A stretch of 12,568 bases of DNA from a virus. Lineage: Duplodnaviria; Heunggongvirae; Uroviricota; Caudoviricetes. The notes under the pieces were generated by a model. That model made no database searches, had not been told where the DNA came from, and saw only the letters and a list, made by a program, of their open reading frames with translations. The translations under genes and the position numbers were made by a program. How positions within the stretch are numbered: position 1 is the stretch's first letter; the number at the start of each line of letters is the position of its first letter. Below, one piece after another: positions 1,462-12,568 of the stretch. The stretch lies in the IMG/VR virus record IMGVR_UViG_2740892115_000002, one strand, 5' to 3'.

Positions 1462-1910
1462 ATATGTCCTTTTATCACTATATCAAGACAAACCATTGAT
1501 TTAATTAAATAATCTGCACTGCAAAAAGTGCCAAAAATCGCAAATTGACTACACCATTAACTACACCGTTCGGTGCACCGTATGAAACAACGTGGAACAA
1601 ATAGACACAAGAAATATACAGGCGGATCATCTTTCCAGGGGGAAGCGCACCAATTCATGAGGGGCGTTAATGTCTATATGGGGATCCCCACCTACCGGAA
1701 TTTTTTTCCGGTTAAACGTTAATCAGGCTGGTGGGCTTTACCTGTTCGGTAGGTGTTATGATTATCGTAATACCTTTCCCCCAATGGGGTAAAAGCATCA
1801 ACCGTAACGAAAGTCGTTATGGTTGCCTTGATGGTCTGCGTGGTCATTATGACCATTCAGAATTTGAAGGGTGATGTTTCCGATCTCCTCAAATTGAGGT
1901 TGCCGGAAAT

Positions 1911-2844: not shown

Positions 2845-3038
2845 CCGGTTAACGGGTACGATGTCCGGTTTTAGTGTCTGTTTTTTGCGCATGTCCGGTT
2901 CATAGAAAGCATGTTTTTATATTTTTCATATGGTTAACTTGCAGAGAAACCGGACATGGATCCCGGAAAATTTTCATAAATAGTGAAAACGCGCGAGGTC
3001 GCCGCCCCGTAACGGGCCATAATTCCAGGAAGGACCCG
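2845..3038 (-). other. cos-like site B (leftward orientation): lambda-type cosN plus ATGTCCGGTT repeat set
   Basis: Read on the minus strand from 3038: cosN (core 2996-3007), then CGTTTTCACTATTTATGAAAATTTTCCGG, which is nearly identical to lambda sequence just inside cosN from memory. Then ATGTCCGGTT-type repeats at 2948-2957, 2891-2900 and 2861-2870 in a direct/inverted/inverted pattern, spaced roughly 50, 105 and 135 bp from cosN, reminiscent of lambda R3/R2/R1 with an AT-rich stretch between. Confidence 0.65.
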
Positions 3039-6215: not shown

Positions 6216-6259
6216 ATTTATTTTTACCCCCTCGTTTAAAAAGTTTTGAGTTGTGCCTC

Positions 6260-6495
6260 CCCTTGTCTACCTTATCTACCTTAGTGGCCCTCATGCCAGT
6301 AATGGCGCGGCTTTCAGCGGGGTAGAGTGCTTTTATCCACTATCTACCCCGTGTCTACCTCCCTGTCTGATTCAGGTAAAATCAGGTAGAGAGGGTAGAT
6401 AGTGGGTAGACAGTAAAAAAAGGCTATCTACCTAACTTAATGCACTGAATTAAATGTATTTTTCTTTACTCAGGTAGACAGGGTAGACAGCAATT
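6260..6495. repeat. Replication origin-like iteron array (about 11 copies of the 7-bp unit TCTACC / GGTAGA in both orientations around an AT-rich core)
   Basis: gtctacc and atctacc at 6265-6280, ggtagag at 6321, atctacc and gtctacc at 6342-6359, ggtagag-ggtagat-ggtagac at 6386-6411, atctacc at 6426, ggtagac-ggtagac at 6474-6489, with an AT-rich segment at 6434-6471. Located immediately 3' of the primase-helicase gene, as in satellite and PICI origins. Confidence 0.7.
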
Positions 6496-6503
6496 ACAAA
6501 AAA

Positions 6504-8258
6504 TTATAAAAACGCGTCGCACTCGTCTGTTGTTATTGCGTTAGTCTGCGTTACCCCCTTAACTTTCCGCGTAATATATTCATGTCCGTAAACTTTTGCG
6601 GCAGGCTTCATAGCCTTTCCAAAGTCATTTACGTTTAGCGGTTTGCTCCTGCCTGCGTATGCCATAAACGCCAGATAGACGCGGTAAAGGCTGTTCCTGG
6701 TCGTGTACTTCACTGAATCGCCACCGCCCCCCATCATCAGGCCGCGCGCTTCCTCCAGAAAATTCAGGAACTGGCAAAACTCAATAACCGGATCCGTCTG
6801 TTGCTTTATTGCCAGTGCTTCATCACCGTCACGCTGTTCCAGTAGTAAAGCCCGTGCCTTCTCAGGGTCGGTAAAGTTCGCCAGCAATCGGCGGATAATG
6901 ACAGGGATTTCAGCCGCGATCTTTTCCGGTAGCTCCCTGTCTTTTTCGGCCTCACTGACGATATTGTCGAAACGGAAAATCACGCGACGACGTGCCACAC
7001 CTCCGGCCCGTTCGGTGAATATCATCGGGTTATTGTTGGTCGCCAGCACCACCGCCCTGATTACAGCCGTGAAACGCTTTTCGTATTTCGGGTTAATTTC
7101 CACGGGGTCACCGCCCGTGATTTTCTTGATGCCCGTTCCTTCGCCTGTATATTTCGGCTGGTCAGCCAGGACGATAAGACGACTCCCGACAACCTGCGCA
7201 CGTCCACCAGCATCATCAAGCGATGTCATTTCAGCGCTTACCGTGTTCTGTTTCCCTGCCAGAAGGCTGGCTATGTGCGTGAATGTACTTTTACCGCTCC
7301 CGCCGTCTCCGGTGGCCTCAATAAACATCTGCCAGTCGTACCGGTTCGCCATAATCATGTACAGCGCGGCACATATACGCATCATCTTGCGCGGGTCTTT
7401 TCCGGCTGCGTGCTCAAGCCATTTATGAAAGTTTGGCGCGTTATCGCGGATGTTCTCCCCTGGTGCTGGTGGCGTGTACTCAATGCCGTTGTGCGTGGTG
7501 ATCCAGTTCTCCGGCGTGTGCGGGGAAAATCCCCCCGTTTTCAGGTCAAGCGCACCATTGGCGAACGGCAGCAAATCGCCGGACGGCTCGCCCATTGGTT
7601 CGGCAATAACTTTTAACGCTTCCACGGCGTTATTGATTACGCGCTTGCTGAAAGTGGCCCTGTGCTCTGAATAGATCGCCACCATTTCGCGGCTAAGTTC
7701 CATTGTGCTGACCGGACACCATACCCCGCCGCGCCATACGTGAACGATTTCACTTTCAGGATGTACGCAAACGCCATCAAAGCGATCGGCAAGCAGCTGC
7801 GCGCGCTCACTGTCCGCCATCTGCGAAAGTTGCGCCTTTTGCTTTACCGGAAGCTCAATGACCAGACCATCAGAAAGATTCTGGCGCTCACGGGCCAGAT
7901 ATTCGCGCCAGTTCTCCACCTTCTGACCGTGCATACCATCAGGGTAAAAATTTGCATCCTGTACGCCTGCCGCCGCCAGCTTCTGGCCAATCGCCTTTAT
8001 CATTACTGGCGCAAGATATCCGGCCCTGAATATGCGCACGGATTTTCTGCCTTCCGGCACAATTTGCAGCTTATCCAGTTCTGATAACTGCTGCTCCCCA
8101 AGCCACACAGGAGGCTCATTATCTCCGGCCATACGCGCATCATGTTCCTGCCATTGTTTCGCGTGTGCCCAGGCATCACTACCCGCAAAAATAATGACTT
8201 CTGTTCCTTTGTGTTTTATGCCGCGTGACTGCTGTTTTACGTTCGGTGCCAGTTTCAT
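6504..8258 (-). CDS. Replication initiator, P4 alpha / D5-family primase-helicase-like (584 aa)
   Basis: Walker A motif GDGGSGKST and downstream D5/P4-type helicase-like blocks. Size and position (upstream of iterons) fit a pri-rep gene. AGGGG Shine-Dalgarno-like sequence; start overlaps the upstream ORF stop (ATGA). Confidence 0.8.
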   Translation of the reverse strand: MKLAPNVKQQSRGIKHKGTEVIIFAGSDAWAHAKQWQEHDARMAGDNEPPVWLGEQQLSELDKLQIVPEGRKSVRIFRAGYLAPVMIKAIGQKLAAAGVQDANFYPDGMHGQKVENWREYLARERQNLSDGLVIELPVKQKAQLSQMADSERAQLLADRFDGVCVHPESEIVHVWRGGVWCPVSTMELSREMVAIYSEHRATFSKRVINNAVEALKVIAEPMGEPSGDLLPFANGALDLKTGGFSPHTPENWITTHNGIEYTPPAPGENIRDNAPNFHKWLEHAAGKDPRKMMRICAALYMIMANRYDWQMFIEATGDGGSGKSTFTHIASLLAGKQNTVSAEMTSLDDAGGRAQVVGSRLIVLADQPKYTGEGTGIKKITGGDPVEINPKYEKRFTAVIRAVVLATNNNPMIFTERAGGVARRRVIFRFDNIVSEAEKDRELPEKIAAEIPVIIRRLLANFTDPEKARALLLEQRDGDEALAIKQQTDPVIEFCQFLNFLEEARGLMMGGGGDSVKYTTRNSLYRVYLAFMAYAGRSKPLNVNDFGKAMKPAAKVYGHEYITRKVKGVTQTNAITTDECDAFL

Positions 8259-9229: not shown

Positions 9230-9449
9230 GTACCCCTCCGCATTTTTTTTCGTTAGAAATAAGCGTTCTTCTTTCCTGTTCATCGCTCAGGAATACGCAG
9301 ACCTCACCGCTAAGGCGTTTAAGTAAGCCGATGATTGCCCCTGATTCGCTGTCGGTCATCATGCCAGGGTAATCCTCTGCCAGTGCGCAAATAACTTCGA
9401 TTTGGTGGGCGCGTTCTGCTGCCTGTTGTAGTGTGATTTCCTGGCTCAT
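9219..9449 (-). CDS. Hypothetical 76-aa protein
   Basis: ORF whose start overlaps the stop of the upstream frame (ATGA at 9446-9449), part of the tightly coupled operon. Confidence 0.5.
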   Translation of the reverse strand: MSQEITLQQAAERAHQIEVICALAEDYPGMMTDSESGAIIGLLKRLSGEVCVFLSDEQERRTLISNEKKCGGVHVQ

Positions 9450-10732
9450 AAGCCTACCCCCTGACGAATACGGGCAGCAAATACCATCACGCAGCCAGCC
9501 GGAGATTGCTGGCGTGCTTCCTGTTCGCTGGTGGCCTCAATGGTAATCACGCGCGGTTGTGCCGTGCTCAGGGCGATAAAACGCCAGATGTATTTATTCA
9601 GGTTGTGCGAGTCCCGCCCTTGCGGGTGTGTGGTATGATTTAACATAGCTACCTCGATACTTTCGCTATCGTTGGTGGTTAGAAGCCCTGCGAGTGGTAA
9701 CGACACTTGCGGGGCTTTGCATTTATGCACCTTGATAATCTCAAGGTGTGGCCCACTATATGCTTTAGGTGTGGCCCACGTCAAGGGTTTTATTTGTGCT
9801 TTTTCTGTGTATACTGTCCCCCACCAATCCAACAGAGGAATAGAAATGGCAACGGGTACAACAAACGCAAAATCACAAGCTCTAAAGGCTCGTGTACCAC
9901 ACGAAATAGTAAACGCCATGGAATCAGTGAAAGAATCAGGCGAAAGCACATCACAATTCATCATTGCGTCAATGCAAGGCGAGATCAAACGCCGCCAGCG
10001 CCGCAAGGCCAAAGAGCAGGAGTAACCATCACCAGCGCCGTGGTGTGAGTAACTACGGCGCATTGCTATGCAGGACAACACAATGACCGATAAAGAATTG
10101 ACCAAAACATTATCACCGGCACGGAAAAGACGGCGCAGAAAGATAGAGCATGAATCAGAAAGATTCGCGCCATGTGCTTTTGCCCTTGAGCAATTCCTTA
10201 AAGAGTACAGGGAAAAGCGCTCATTGCAGGTATGGCAACGAACTGAACCTGACTGATTGCATTGCCCACCAGCCGCAAATGTGGCATTGTTGGCAATGCT
10301 CATGCGTTGGGGATAACGTGTAGCTTGTGTCGAGGGGCCACCGTAGCGGGTGGCCTTTGTTTTGCCCGTTATTCGGCAATTGTGGCGCTTCTCCACATGG
10401 TTGATATAATCCCACTGCTCAGATTCATTTTTTGCGCAGTAGGTTAATTGTTCACAAAGGCGCTCCGGCAACGGGGCGCTTTTTGTTTTTATTAGTTTGT
10501 AGAAACCTGACTCAGAGATAATGCTCATATTCTGATTGCCGTCAGGGGTGTAAGTTAAATTTACTCCCTTTTTATCATCAAACATCTGCAACGCTCTGGC
10601 GTTAACAATATTGGTTTCACTCCCGCCAGTAAGGCCGGAAATAACCGGAATAATTTCGGCAAAATTTTGCAGATTCTGTTTTTCAGGACGAACGAAGCCC
10701 CGCCCTTGTTCGGGAGAATATCCAGTATTCAT
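9446..10732 (-). CDS. Uncertain 428-aa open frame; likely a real N-terminal domain (about 115 aa from 10732) and/or a short C-terminal gene (possible start 9643, 66 aa), with the middle unlikely to be coding
   Basis: The N-terminal part has normal protein-like composition (NLTYTPDGNQNMSIISESGFYKLI, faintly like phage antirepressor N-domains). The central part is Cys/Arg/Ser-rich and antisense to two plus-strand small ORFs with good Shine-Dalgarno-like sequences. No in-frame stop until 9446. Confidence 0.3.
   Translation of the reverse strand: MNTGYSPEQGRGFVRPEKQNLQNFAEIIPVISGLTGGSETNIVNARALQMFDDKKGVNLTYTPDGNQNMSIISESGFYKLIKTKSAPLPERLCEQLTYCAKNESEQWDYINHVEKRHNCRITGKTKATRYGGPSTQATRYPQRMSIANNATFAAGGQCNQSGSVRCHTCNERFSLYSLRNCSRAKAHGANLSDSCSIFLRRLFRAGDNVLVNSLSVIVLSCIAMRRSYSHHGAGDGYSCSLALRRWRRLISPCIDAMMNCDVLSPDSFTDSMAFTISCGTRAFRACDFAFVVPVAISIPLLDWWGTVYTEKAQIKPLTWATPKAYSGPHLEIIKVHKCKAPQVSLPLAGLLTTNDSESIEVAMLNHTTHPQGRDSHNLNKYIWRFIALSTAQPRVITIEATSEQEARQQSPAGCVMVFAARIRQGVGL
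9744..9779. promoter_or_regulatory. Divergent control region with two direct 13-bp repeats AGGTGTGGCCCAC (9744-9756, 9767-9779)
   Basis: Repeats 23 bp apart in the intergenic region between the minus-strand small-ORF operon and the plus-strand RHH-like gene. A TATACT -10-like hexamer at 9811-9816 lies upstream of the plus-strand ATG at 9846. Confidence 0.5.
9846..10025 (+). CDS. Small ribbon-helix-helix-like DNA-binding protein (59 aa), candidate island repressor or regulator
   Basis: AGAGGAA Shine-Dalgarno-like sequence 5 nt upstream of the ATG. Sequence pattern of a beta-strand followed by two helices (KSQALKARVPHEIVNAMESVKE...STSQFIIASMQ) and a basic tail RRQRRKAKEQE. Family assignment is by pattern only. 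Confidence 0.5.
   Translation: MATGTTNAKSQALKARVPHEIVNAMESVKESGESTSQFIIASMQGEIKRRQRRKAKEQE
10083..10256 (+). CDS. Possible small basic protein (57 aa from the ATG at 10083; the ORF is open from 10068)
   Basis: AGGA 7 nt upstream of the ATG at 10083. Contains an RKRRRRK stretch. Weak support. Confidence 0.3.
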   Translation: MTDKELTKTLSPARKRRRRKIEHESERFAPCAFALEQFLKEYREKRSLQVWQRTEPD

Positions 10733-10784
10733 GGTTAGATCTCTGTATTAGTGGATGGGTGGCGGCTGTGTGCCGCCAGCCTGA

Positions 10785-10973
10785 TTAGTGAACTGCCTCG
10801 CAGCTGTCCTTCCATGCCAGAACTTCGGATAAAGACCAGCCAACGGAACGACCGCCCAGCTTACGCCGTGATGGGAATTGTCCGGCTTTTTCCAGGCGGT
10901 ACCGACATGAGCGGCTCAGGCCTGTAAGTTGCTGACATTCTTTTTCACGTATAAAGCGATCTGTGCTTAACAC
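10785..10973 (-). CDS. alpA: AlpA-family (phage Xis/MerR-like) transcriptional regulator, 62 aa
   Basis: Matches the AlpA pattern as recalled: LTGLSRSCRYRLEKAGQFPSRRKLGGRSVGWSLSEVLAW versus AlpA TG..R.TIY......FP....LG.KSVGW...EI..W. Position next to the integrase is typical. Confidence 0.75.
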   Translation of the reverse strand: MLSTDRFIREKECQQLTGLSRSCRYRLEKAGQFPSRRKLGGRSVGWSLSEVLAWKDSCEAVH

Positions 10974-11254
10974 AATTCCCCCTTTGTTGTTTCTTAAAGA
11001 GTCATTGGGTGGATTATTGGGTTGGGTTGTGTCGGATTGTGTCAGGGTGTTTGTGGAATGGCAAACACTGGCGGCGGTCGTTTTACAGAAGCAGGGGAAA
11101 TGAGAATAAAAACTCTTTTAATTCATTATGATGCAAAGGCATAAAATTTTACTTTTACGCCTTTTTTACATATTTTTAAGAGTGATTCGCCAGTGTATAA
11201 AAAAACAGTACACCTATAAAAATCAAATGGTTATTACGATGGCTGATTTTTAAC

Positions 11255-11313
11255 CCGTTGTTCCATTTTGTTCCTTGTTGTTCGTCGTTGTGTCTCGTTG
11301 TTTCACGTTGTCC
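11255..11313. repeat. Six tandem copies of a CGTTGT-containing unit at about 10-bp periodicity, directly 3' of the integrase gene
   Basis: ccgttgttcc / ttttgttcc / ttgttgttcg / tcgttgtgtc / tcgttgtttc / acgttgtcc, with units starting near 11256, 11267, 11277, 11286, 11296 and 11306. A related GT-rich set (ggttgtgtc, gattgtgtc) lies at about 11025-11055 near the alpA 5' region. Confidence 0.6.
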
Positions 11314-11338
11314 GCATCCTGAAAAATCGCAAAAAAAA

Positions 11339-12568
11339 TTATATTTCTCTGGCTATTGGCAATGTGGTTACGTTTTCATGTGTTCCCGCCAGTATCCCTA
11401 ACCGCTCCGTCCACATATCCAGCGCGTCACGTTTCGCATCCAGATAACGGGAATGGTTATAGACTCGTTGCATCCCTGGCATCTGATGACCTGTAAGCTG
11501 CTCCACGACGTGAGGATCCACGCCTAAATCGTTCAGCATCGTTGTAAAGGTGCGCCGGATGTCATGCAGTGACCAGTGAGGGTGTTTTAGCCTCCTGTGC
11601 GCTAATCTGCCGTACTGCGACACGCTTGTTTCCTGTTTCACTTCCCCCAGCAATAAGCCCGTGTGCCTGTTCTGCTCCACCAGCTGCGTGACGAACGGCA
11701 GTATTGCTTCCGGTATGGGCCGGAATATTGCCACCTTCGTTTTGCTGTGTTCTTTCGGCACGGTCCAGAGCATTTCGGTAAAATCCCACTCGCTGATCTC
11801 CGATAACCTCAGTTCTACCGTCCGGCATCCGAAAACAATCAGGAGGCGGATTAGTGCGACGTAGTAAGGGGAAAATATTTTTTTGTCCAGTGCCTGCAAT
11901 AATTCGCCAAGTTCTTTGGTGCTTAAGACGCGCTCGCTTATATCCGGTTTTTTCCCAACGTCCGCCACACTCATATCATCAAGAACGTTGCTGATTGCAT
12001 AGCGCCGCCTCCGGCAGAACTTAAGCGCCTGTTTGCACGTCTGTAGCAAGAATCCGGCAGTAACAGGCGTTCGCTTTGCCACCTGGTCAAAACAGGCCAG
12101 CCAGTGCCGTAGCTCGCATTTATCCAGCGGCATAGCACCAATGTGCTGTATTACGTGATTATTAAGGCGCTTTTTCAGGGCGGCATAATCCACGCGGTTT
12201 TCCTTTGCGTACGACTCAAGCCAGTAGGTGAGCGCATCGCCAACCGTTACCGGCTTTAACGCTTCCTGTACGGTGTAATTCATTTCATGACGTGGATTTT
12301 TCCCCTCTGCCAGCCATGCGCGACACTGGGCGGCTTTTTCCCTGGCTGATTTCAGGCTCAGATCAGGATAATTTCCCAGCTTAATGCGTTCCGGTGGTGC
12401 CCCCCTTCCCGTTCCGGCCCTGTAAGTGAAATACCAGGTTAAAAGGCCACTGGTTGAATGCCTGACGCTCAGGTTTCCACCGTCATTAAGAAAGGCTGTT
12501 TTTTGGGCGGGTGTGCCGTTGATTTTCCTCAGCTGTGTATCGCTCAGTTTGTTAAGTGCTCTGCTCAT
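11339..12568 (-). CDS. int: Tyrosine recombinase, P4-type integrase (409 aa; start codon at the window edge)
   Basis: N-terminal arm-binding-like region typical of P4-family integrases (DGGNLSV...W.F.YR......R..LG.YP..SLKSAREKA...AWLAEGKNP). C-terminal catalytic region includes HDIRRTF and HxxR...Y (RVYNHSRY). The start lies on the last base of the window, so an upstream in-frame start cannot be excluded. Confidence 0.9.
   Translation of the reverse strand: MSRALNKLSDTQLRKINGTPAQKTAFLNDGGNLSVRHSTSGLLTWYFTYRAGTGRGAPPERIKLGNYPDLSLKSAREKAAQCRAWLAEGKNPRHEMNYTVQEALKPVTVGDALTYWLESYAKENRVDYAALKKRLNNHVIQHIGAMPLDKCELRHWLACFDQVAKRTPVTAGFLLQTCKQALKFCRRRRYAISNVLDDMSVADVGKKPDISERVLSTKELGELLQALDKKIFSPYYVALIRLLIVFGCRTVELRLSEISEWDFTEMLWTVPKEHSKTKVAIFRPIPEAILPFVTQLVEQNRHTGLLLGEVKQETSVSQYGRLAHRRLKHPHWSLHDIRRTFTTMLNDLGVDPHVVEQLTGHQMPGMQRVYNHSRYLDAKRDALDMWTERLGILAGTHENVTTLPIAREI

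Follow-up and report, generated by a model that had tools for sequence, protein, structure and literature searches.

Operator arrays that serve one small protein both as a recombination directionality factor (RDF) and as a regulator of transcription are already well known, and what is new here is a candidate operator for AlpA, the master switch of the Gram-negative phage-inducible chromosomal islands (PICIs), found in the spacer between int and alpA in a 12,568-nucleotide stretch of viral DNA (IMG/VR record IMGVR_UViG_2740892115_000002; the whole stretch is called the window below). Apl of phage 186 binds five operators at attP and seven between pR and pL, arranged as direct repeats 10-11 bp apart, and its binding needs three adjacent sites (PMC7498355). 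Cox of phage P2, like Apl, uses one-per-turn direct repeats at the attachment site (att) and at distant promoters, and is cited in the same paper as activating the PLL promoter of the satellite P4 via Cox boxes (PMC7498355). In KplE1, TorI binds GTTCG sites with a 10-bp period that lie beside IntS arm sites of a different sequence (PMC2951348).

For the PICIs themselves, AlpA activates its own promoter PalpA, leaves Pint and int expression unchanged, and triggers int-dependent excision and replication; alpA is in turn switched on by helper phages (PMC6092414). Vis is the P4 counterpart of PICI AlpA and is only remotely related to it (PMC6092414). In the PICMI satellites, AlpA alone suffices for excision, with transcription unchanged (PMC10803314). 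In helper-embedded PICIs, a tandem 12-bp doubled motif (tgTGTATTGCantgTGTATTGCa), co-oriented and with one copy per arm, was proposed to form the integrase arm sites; the same study found this motif to be absent from other PICIs and described neither phased triplets nor an int-alpA array. The literature searched does not describe the DNA target of AlpA: no paper was found that maps an AlpA site in a PICI, and the words "repeats" and "intergenic" are absent from PMC6092414.

The window holds an EcCICFT073-type PICI adjoining phoQ, and the 365-bp int-alpA region (positions 10,974 to 11,338) is 100% identical to that of E. coli CFT073 and other strains. Since all island genes lie on the - strand, namely int, alpA, a P4-type primase, an SSB, and capsid and decoration genes, the region studied is the spacer that runs from the int stop codon to the alpA start codon. 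A sequence-only reading of this DNA had noted six tandem units of about 10 bp containing CGTTGT next to int. The six units and their exact 10-bp phasing were confirmed, but the full hexamer occurs in only four of them (11256, 11286, 11296 and 11306), with GTTGT in five and TTGT in all six. Taken every 10 bp from 11256 on the + strand, the units read CGTTGTTCCA, TTTTGTTCCT, TGTTGTTCGT, CGTTGTGTCT, CGTTGTTTCA and CGTTGTCCGC, which on the alpA-sense strand become GCGGACAACG TGAAACAACG AGACACAACG ACGAACAACA AGGAACAAAA TGGAACAACG. They are direct, co-oriented and spaced by exactly 10 bp, one per helical turn, and a period of 10 was called by Tandem Repeats Finder at 11257-11283 and at 11268-11311. 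The array starts 23 bp beyond the int stop codon, and its far end is 283 bp ahead of the alpA GTG (10973).

The hexamer CGTTGT is not enriched over the whole window (8 matches, where 7.4 would be expected). In 300 dinucleotide-preserving shuffles of the window, no 5-mer ever filled more than three of six successive 10-bp slots, against five in the array, and runs of at least three ACAA, the core as read in the alpA sense, at 10/11-bp spacing are expected only 0.02 times per window. The array is not a coding repeat, because its 10-bp period is no multiple of three, and no Rfam match at E <= 1 was obtained in 10600-11600.

Absence of the repeats from related islands was to have told against the sequence-only reading, and this was examined with two collections, in both of which the array turned out to be conserved. 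The first is an alignment of ten distinct E. coli island sequences that includes the O157-type islands, whose spacer is a second, more diverged version that a short-word search does not match and whose AlpA differs by 3-4 residues. TTGT is kept every 10 bp in seven E. coli islands (81-87% identity) in which the neighbouring 40 bp are scrambled. Across the ten islands, 2 of the 20 ACAA core columns are variable versus 26 of 30 non-core columns, the mean column identity is 0.985 in the core versus 0.65 at the six positions between cores (Mann-Whitney p = 1.3e-7), and the 40 bp directly after the array are only 51% conserved. The second collection comprises 51 distinct alpA-upstream sequences from IMG/VR with AlpA at least 90% identical. 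All 51 have the array (50 by the exact-core detector and one, with a single mutated core, by eye), and in every one its proximal end is 270-293 bp from the alpA start. Related islands have five or six units, with changes that come as whole 10-bp units, and a single variant in the IMG/VR set (L075) has gained one extra whole unit. Judged from these alignments, the repeats are under phase-specific selection. Such conservation would fit the cooperative binding of a small protein at helically phased sites along one face of the DNA, as the sequence-only reading had proposed, and the recurrence of the motif at the att arms points the same way.

The att core repeat is present at both island ends in CFT073, and each arm (window 1462-1612; L001 14096-14275) is a co-oriented module made of a 12-bp doublet (ATTAACTACACC) and a phased triplet of array-like units (Table 1). 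The P arm set, on the upstream side of int, falls beyond the window (L001 14147-14186); in CFT073 this arm has the doublet again, CTACAACGTG AAACAAGCTG GAACAAGG and, closer to the core, a second and weaker set. P arm sets upstream of int were found in CFT073, E423, PapRG, O157 and Shigella, the doublet is upstream of int in all islands examined, and islands inserted in yifB or tqsA have other att cores and the same arm modules. The int start codon is only 26 bp from the doublet, so that the int promoter must lie within the arm. An exact 14-mer (ACAACGTGAAACAA) is common to arm and array, and the array probably arose, to go by this likeness, through copying of the phased part of an arm followed by expansion.

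About 150 kb of sequence, made up of islands, their flanks and control regions from K-12, was scanned for runs of three or more ACAA spaced 10/11 bp apart. Runs were limited to four places, namely the two att arms, the int-alpA array and a site ahead of the late operon; none was found in the flanking chromosome or in the K-12 controls. Sites of the integrase arm type typically lie within about 150-200 bp of the core, as the arm triplets do; the array lies about 1.4 kb (1.3-1.5 kb) away, with the whole int gene between. It does have several properties of RDF operators, namely three or more direct repeats at 10-11-bp spacing, the same sequence in the att arms beside the candidate integrase arm sites, and an excisionase-fold protein encoded in the element.

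Table 1. Positions in the window of the array, the other spacer elements, the flanking genes and the phoQ-side attachment site.
Feature	Position	Strand	Remarks
Array, candidate AlpA operator	11256..11315	-	six head-to-tail 10-bp units; invariant core ACAA (alpA-sense)
AT-rich block TGATTTT...TTTTTTATACACTGGCGAATCACTCTTAAAAA	11173..11225	-	53 bp between array and hairpin; 84% mean column identity (10 islands)
Hairpin AAAGGCGTAAAA-GTAAAA-TTTTATGCCTTT	11135..11164		A-tract and T-tract flanks; terminator-like on both strands
Predicted sigma-70 alpA promoter	11036..11064	-	-35 TTGCCA (11064-11059), 17-bp spacer, TG and -10 CACAAT (11044-11036); consensus scan
Two proximal box-like units TGACACAATC CGACACAACC	11025..11044	-	10 bp apart; GT-rich cluster of the sequence-only reading, opposite strand
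alpA 5' leader CTCTTT...AAAGGGGG	10978..11001	-	can pair, hiding the ribosome-binding site (read by eye)
int	11339..12568	-	P4-type tyrosine integrase, N-terminal arm-binding domain; Pfam PF13356, PF00589, PF22022 (weak, below curated cut-off)
alpA	10785..10973	-	62 aa, GTG start at 10973; Pfam PF05930, E = 3e-18; candidate binding protein
att core ATATGTCC	1462..1469	+	phoQ-side island junction; set by the K-12 empty site phoQ-TAA-ATATGCCCATACTTCACGC
12-bp tandem doublet ATTGACTACACC ATTAACTACACC	1544..1567	+	candidate integrase arm-type sites; about 80 bp inside the island; att arms only
P' arm triplet TGAAACAACG TGGAACAAAT AGACACAAGA	1583..1612	+	three phased units; first is array unit 5 exactly

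The late-operon site belongs to the capsid-forming PICIs. In E423, a triplet (TTTGTTCG TGGTTGTTCC AGGTTGTTC) follows directly on a terminator and precedes a -35-like TTTACA by some 24 nt, all of this before the HK97-type capsid operon. Boxes in this position, three phased TTGTTC units, are at 8348-8388 in L009, ~3520-3560 in L032 and ~3530-3575 in L033. The triplet in these capsid-forming islands lies at about -62, -72 and -82 of the promoter-like site and is the best-conserved block upstream of the capsid operon in three of them. About 390 of 523 matching E. coli genomes cover only a short part of the query, which among the matches listed is mostly the triplet segment of about 58 nt. No phased triplet was found upstream of the capsid operon of EcCICFT073 itself, nor at the late-operon position of the O157 roxA island. 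A triplet at a capsid operon fits a site for a transcription factor, because recombination sites have no reason to be there.

As to the protein that would bind these boxes, AlpA, which the sequence-only reading had named as an example, emerged as the best candidate. Its AlphaFold model (pLDDT 87) has an excisionase fold, and the best structural matches are excisionases, namely GIsul2 8C3T (TM 0.83, 36% identity), RdfS, Pukovnik Xis and TorI. The published AlpA-responsive PalpA reporter fragment (PalpA-lacZ plasmid pJP2038) corresponds to window 10916-11371 (455 bp) and contains the array as well as the predicted alpA promoter, about 190 bp from it; the primers of the Pint reporter were not located in the CFT073 record. 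CFT073-type and SA53-type islands have the same doublet and Int arm domains of 80% identity; their AlpA proteins are only 58% identical, and the phased core, ACAA in the first type, is CGAAC in the second, in the arm as well as in the region upstream of alpA. This comparison of proteins and motifs extends over only 2-4 lineages. On this sequence evidence, the doublet would represent the integrase arm-binding sites and the phased boxes the RDF sites, that is, those of AlpA.

AlpA is thus favoured on several counts: two motifs occupy the arms, of which the doublet is confined to att and the phased box is also found near promoters; the fragment on which AlpA acts contains the array; AlpA is a PF05930 protein whose model matches excisionases best; and its over-expression causes excision with no change in int expression (PMC6092414). 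To these are added that the phased core shifts where AlpA diverges and the doublet stays constant with the Int arm domain, that the phased 10-bp sites of KplE1 belong to the RDF TorI and not to IntS, and that RDFs as a class bind head-to-tail repeats at one-turn spacing, with Apl, Cox and Vis also regulating promoters away from att by means of similar arrays. The array is then most likely, as far as sequence and fold can indicate, the docking site of AlpA rather than of Int, and it is probably a cis-acting operator for head-to-tail cooperative binding of AlpA, a mode of binding that would serve excision at att and the activation of AlpA's own gene here. AlpA monomers would polymerise cooperatively along one DNA face, as excisionase-type RDFs do; on the arm triplets they would direct Int toward excision, and on the six boxes they would raise alpA transcription, so that a small, helper-triggered pulse of AlpA may become a committed, switch-like induction.

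Several observations weigh against this assignment. Some 190 bp, with a terminator-like hairpin among them, separate the array from the only good promoter match downstream of it, and in the alpA sense its orientation is opposite to that of the triplets at the late operon and in the arms. Triplets occur on both att arms, which is less usual for an RDF than one arm, and the argument that separates Int from AlpA draws on very few lineages in which both proteins change. CP4-57, the home of the AlpA prototype, has no phased repeats near intA or alpA, which makes the arrangement lineage-specific, and the array is absent from distant AlpA relatives. A search for AlpA homologues found 19, and the scan of genome contigs with Int gave a single Shigella locus. 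Where AlpA is 53-70% identical, the islands have a gene of 235-302 aa overlapping the int stop, a short spacer and no array, and because no array is there these relatives give no test of covariation.

The layout of those distant relatives is an observation in its own right. A 235-302 aa gene lies over the int stop (with a 4-nt overlap where coordinates were checked) in L011 (2174-2947), L017 (1476-2384) and L103-L110, like iolg of the PICMI satellites, and it is in the place of this gene that CFT073-type islands have the non-coding array spacer. In an SA53-type island (L026, 1900-1960), three AAATATC units 10-11 bp apart follow the int terminator, and these are not conserved in the close relative S21EC.

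The phased boxes could instead be arm-type sites of Int, with the int-alpA array as an extra bank that titrates Int or gives Int control of alpA. The motif does stand on either side of the att core, in the territory of arm-type sites, the core of the box changes little between islands whose AlpA helices differ, and the Int of phage lambda has three adjacent sites at 10-11 bp, P'1-P'3. This alternative is nonetheless unlikely, given the distance of the array from the att core across the whole int gene, the triplet at the capsid operon, for which recombination offers no logic, and the precedent of KplE1, in which the phased sites are not those of IntS. The arm-confined doublet is moreover a better candidate for the arm sites, with a layout like that of the helper-embedded PICIs and a sequence that, in the few lineages compared, seems to track the Int arm domain.

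A further alternative makes the array a sensor of the helper phage, on which a small helper-encoded winged-helix protein, for example an excisionase, produced when the prophage is induced, would bind the boxes and start alpA, after which AlpA would lock the switch. The inducer of alpA in helper phages was left unnamed by the study cited above (PMC6092414), an EcCIMP1 alpA deletion is still induced and its helper has an Xis identical to TorI, and the activation of P4 PLL by P2 Cox, cited in PMC7498355, is an analogous case. The X2 and X1 sites of lambda Xis, 20 bp apart, also match the array matrix, but these matches are weak (7.3 and 5.9 bits). The island is induced by lambda and phi80 alike, although the attP of phi80 lacks the pattern and the Xis proteins of the two phages have no sequence relationship, and nothing ties the inducer to the array part of the 455-bp fragment. 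A sensor of this kind is accordingly quite unlikely; if true, it would be the lambdoid-phage/PICI counterpart of Cox-PLL and would identify the inducer route of Gram-negative PICIs.

A host protein is a very improbable occupant of the array. OmpR uses six tandem 10-bp half-sites, and the 60-bp layout of six units here, with units like TGAAACA, resembles them, so that an OmpR-type winged-helix response regulator might be imagined, or, in view of the AT-rich neighbouring spacer (GC 0.29), a nucleoid protein. Against this, the invariant core ACAA extends past the OmpR core, and the motif was seen at att arms and island promoters only, with no run in the tens of kb of flanking chromosome and K-12 control sequence that were scanned.

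It is highly improbable that the array works as RNA, that is, as a CA/GGA-rich tract in the int 3' untranslated region or the alpA leader that is bound by CsrA, Hfq or ProQ, or as an attenuator with the hairpin. The tract does lie between the int stop and a conserved hairpin whose G.U / G-C / A-U covariation fits a sense-strand RNA, and it has several GGA and AAC repeats on the sense strand; but Rfam gave no match, an invariant 4-bp core that recurs strictly every 10 bp is a signature of the DNA helix, and the att arms, which do not have to be transcribed, have the motif in both orientations. That the array is a functionless, neutral product of replication slippage is scarcely credible. Copy number does change by whole units (L075), and the 14-mer common to arm and array suggests an origin by duplication, but purifying selection is phase-specific across islands of 81-87% identity and two diverged spacer versions, and all 51 variants retain the array.

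In the alpA sense, the order in the spacer is int stop, a T-rich stretch, the array, about 40 variable bp, the AT-rich block, the hairpin, the promoter match, the proximal boxes and the leader, with a GC content of 0.29 at 11134-11255. The variable stretch has a weak -10-like hexamer (TAATAA or TATAAG) 19-20 nt past the last box. The hairpin folds in all ten islands of the alignment (-12.5 to -16.6 kcal/mol), with one pair that varies among G.U, G-C and A-U, and it was missed by a simple terminator scan; it may terminate the int transcript or serve as an attenuator on the way from array to alpA. The predicted alpA promoter is the only good sigma-70 match in the spacer, its TTTGCCA is invariant in the ten islands, and even with its 10-bp rearrangement the O157 variant retains TTGCCA-17-AACAAT. 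A + strand promoter beyond the array, with TATATT at 11340, was considered and rejected, since the O157-type spacer does not conserve this hexamer.

The sequence-only reading had also placed a related GT-rich cluster near the upstream region of alpA. The cluster is there, as GGTTGTGTC (11025-11033), GATTGTGTC (11035-11043) and GGTGTTTGTGG (11046-11056), and its relation to the array was borne out in part: two elements can be read as boxes (TGACACAATC and CGACACAACC), but GGTGTTTGTGG falls in the promoter spacer. The two proximal units are nearly invariant in the ten islands and score below 7 bits with the array matrix, and the O157 variant has three box-like units in their place. They may simply be promoter sequence, because they overlap the -10 and the start site of the sigma-70 match, and it would be the array, rather than these boxes, that mediates activation. 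Bound AlpA might act on a weak promoter that depends on an activator and directly follows the last box, with transcripts reading through the hairpin; it might instead loop to the two proximal boxes, or displace silencing proteins from the AT-rich spacer. Q-like antitermination, as in P. aeruginosa AlpA, an idea invited by the hairpin, was set aside as remote: the AlpA of this island has only about four residues before the helix-turn-helix, and sequence and fold searches brought up no such protein.

The alpA leader has in its loop a strong match to the box, AGAAACAACA at 10985-10994 (12.4 bits with the array matrix). Hairpins of different sequence that hide the ribosome-binding site are also seen in the distant relatives L011 (2960-3000) and L017 (2440-2478). 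The recurrence of such leader hairpins suggests, on the basis of pairing read by eye, translational control of alpA.

A link between the array and repeats next to cos, offered as speculation in the sequence-only reading, found no support. The cos-side sites follow a different 11-mer, GGTTGTTGT[A/T]T, and are unphased and of mixed orientation (2522-2530 on the + strand, 2581-2589 on the - strand and 2659-2667 on the + strand, 59 and 78 bp apart), and only one of them scores with the array matrix, at 8.4 bits. The three adjoin a lambda-like cosN (GGGCGGCGACCTCGCGG, 2472-2488), itself part of a 72-nt segment of which the window has two inverted copies (2441-2512 and 2967-3038; 93% complementary, 454 nt apart). 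Their layout looks like that of terminase-binding R sites, so that they may make up a PICI-specific cosB to which the terminase small subunit binds, and the GTTGT that they have in common with the array is most simply a coincidence.

In CFT073, the island is placed between phoQ and roxA, and small indels outside the 365-bp region separate the window from that assembly. At 9446-10732 on the - strand, a 428-aa open reading frame stands where RefSeq has a 157-aa Icd-like protein and two small + strand genes of the YlcI/YnfO type, and this difference in annotation makes gene calls uncertain in that zone. Short tandem repeats (CCTTATCTA, TCTACCTCCCTG, GGGTAGACAGT and GGTAGACAG) at 6253-6512, directly downstream of the primase gene, agree with the published position of the replication origin downstream of rep (PMC6092414); the int-alpA array does not look like an origin iteron, the origin-like repeats having different motifs, among them GGTAGACAG. 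At 1905-2131, close to where the island ends on the phoQ side, there is a family of direct repeats of about 20 nt (GGAAATATCAACGGGTTAGGC and variants) in three to four copies.

Because the class of mechanism is well known, the value of these findings is practical rather than conceptual. The array offers a candidate operator for AlpA, and the analysis separates the candidate Int arm sites (the doublet) from the candidate RDF sites. Box sites at alpA, the att arms and the capsid operon would tie induction, excision and the expression of packaging genes to one protein.

The arrangement proposed here for AlpA can be set beside several described systems. In 186, excisionase and transcription regulator are likewise combined in one small protein, Apl, with similar sites at att and at a distant promoter, to which the triplets at att and the array of five to six units near a promoter would correspond; Apl, however, represses two face-to-face promoters and is a protein of another sequence family, whereas the published effect of AlpA is activation and the candidate array is about 190 bp from the predicted promoter. 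Cox of P2 and Vis of P4 are also RDFs that control late or early promoters away from att, Cox by binding to tandem boxes. The microfilament that lambda Xis forms on X1-X1.5-X2 is alike in its cooperative head-to-tail binding with one site per turn, and X2 (TGTTGTGT) resembles array unit CGTTGTGTCT; it differs in having three sites on one arm only and no activation of its own gene, and its matches to the array matrix are weak, as noted above.

In KplE1 (CPS-53), IntS has the same integrase architecture as here (PF13356, PF22022 and PF00589), and TorI is a small winged-helix RDF whose sites I1-I5 at attL/PintS (cAGTTCGt, tGGTTCGc, cAGATCGt) also regulate a promoter. The TorI core GTTCG is the core of the SA53-type and L011-type islands (CGAAC / GTTCG), but that of the CFT073-type islands is ACAA. 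TorI is 26% identical to this AlpA and below the PF05930 threshold, its sites are on one arm only, it represses int, and no array lies upstream of torI. The doubled motif of the helper-embedded PICIs, lastly, is placed 81 and 132 bp from the core, and the 12-bp doublet here, although different in sequence, matches it in layout, likewise at unequal distances, about 91 and 142 bp.

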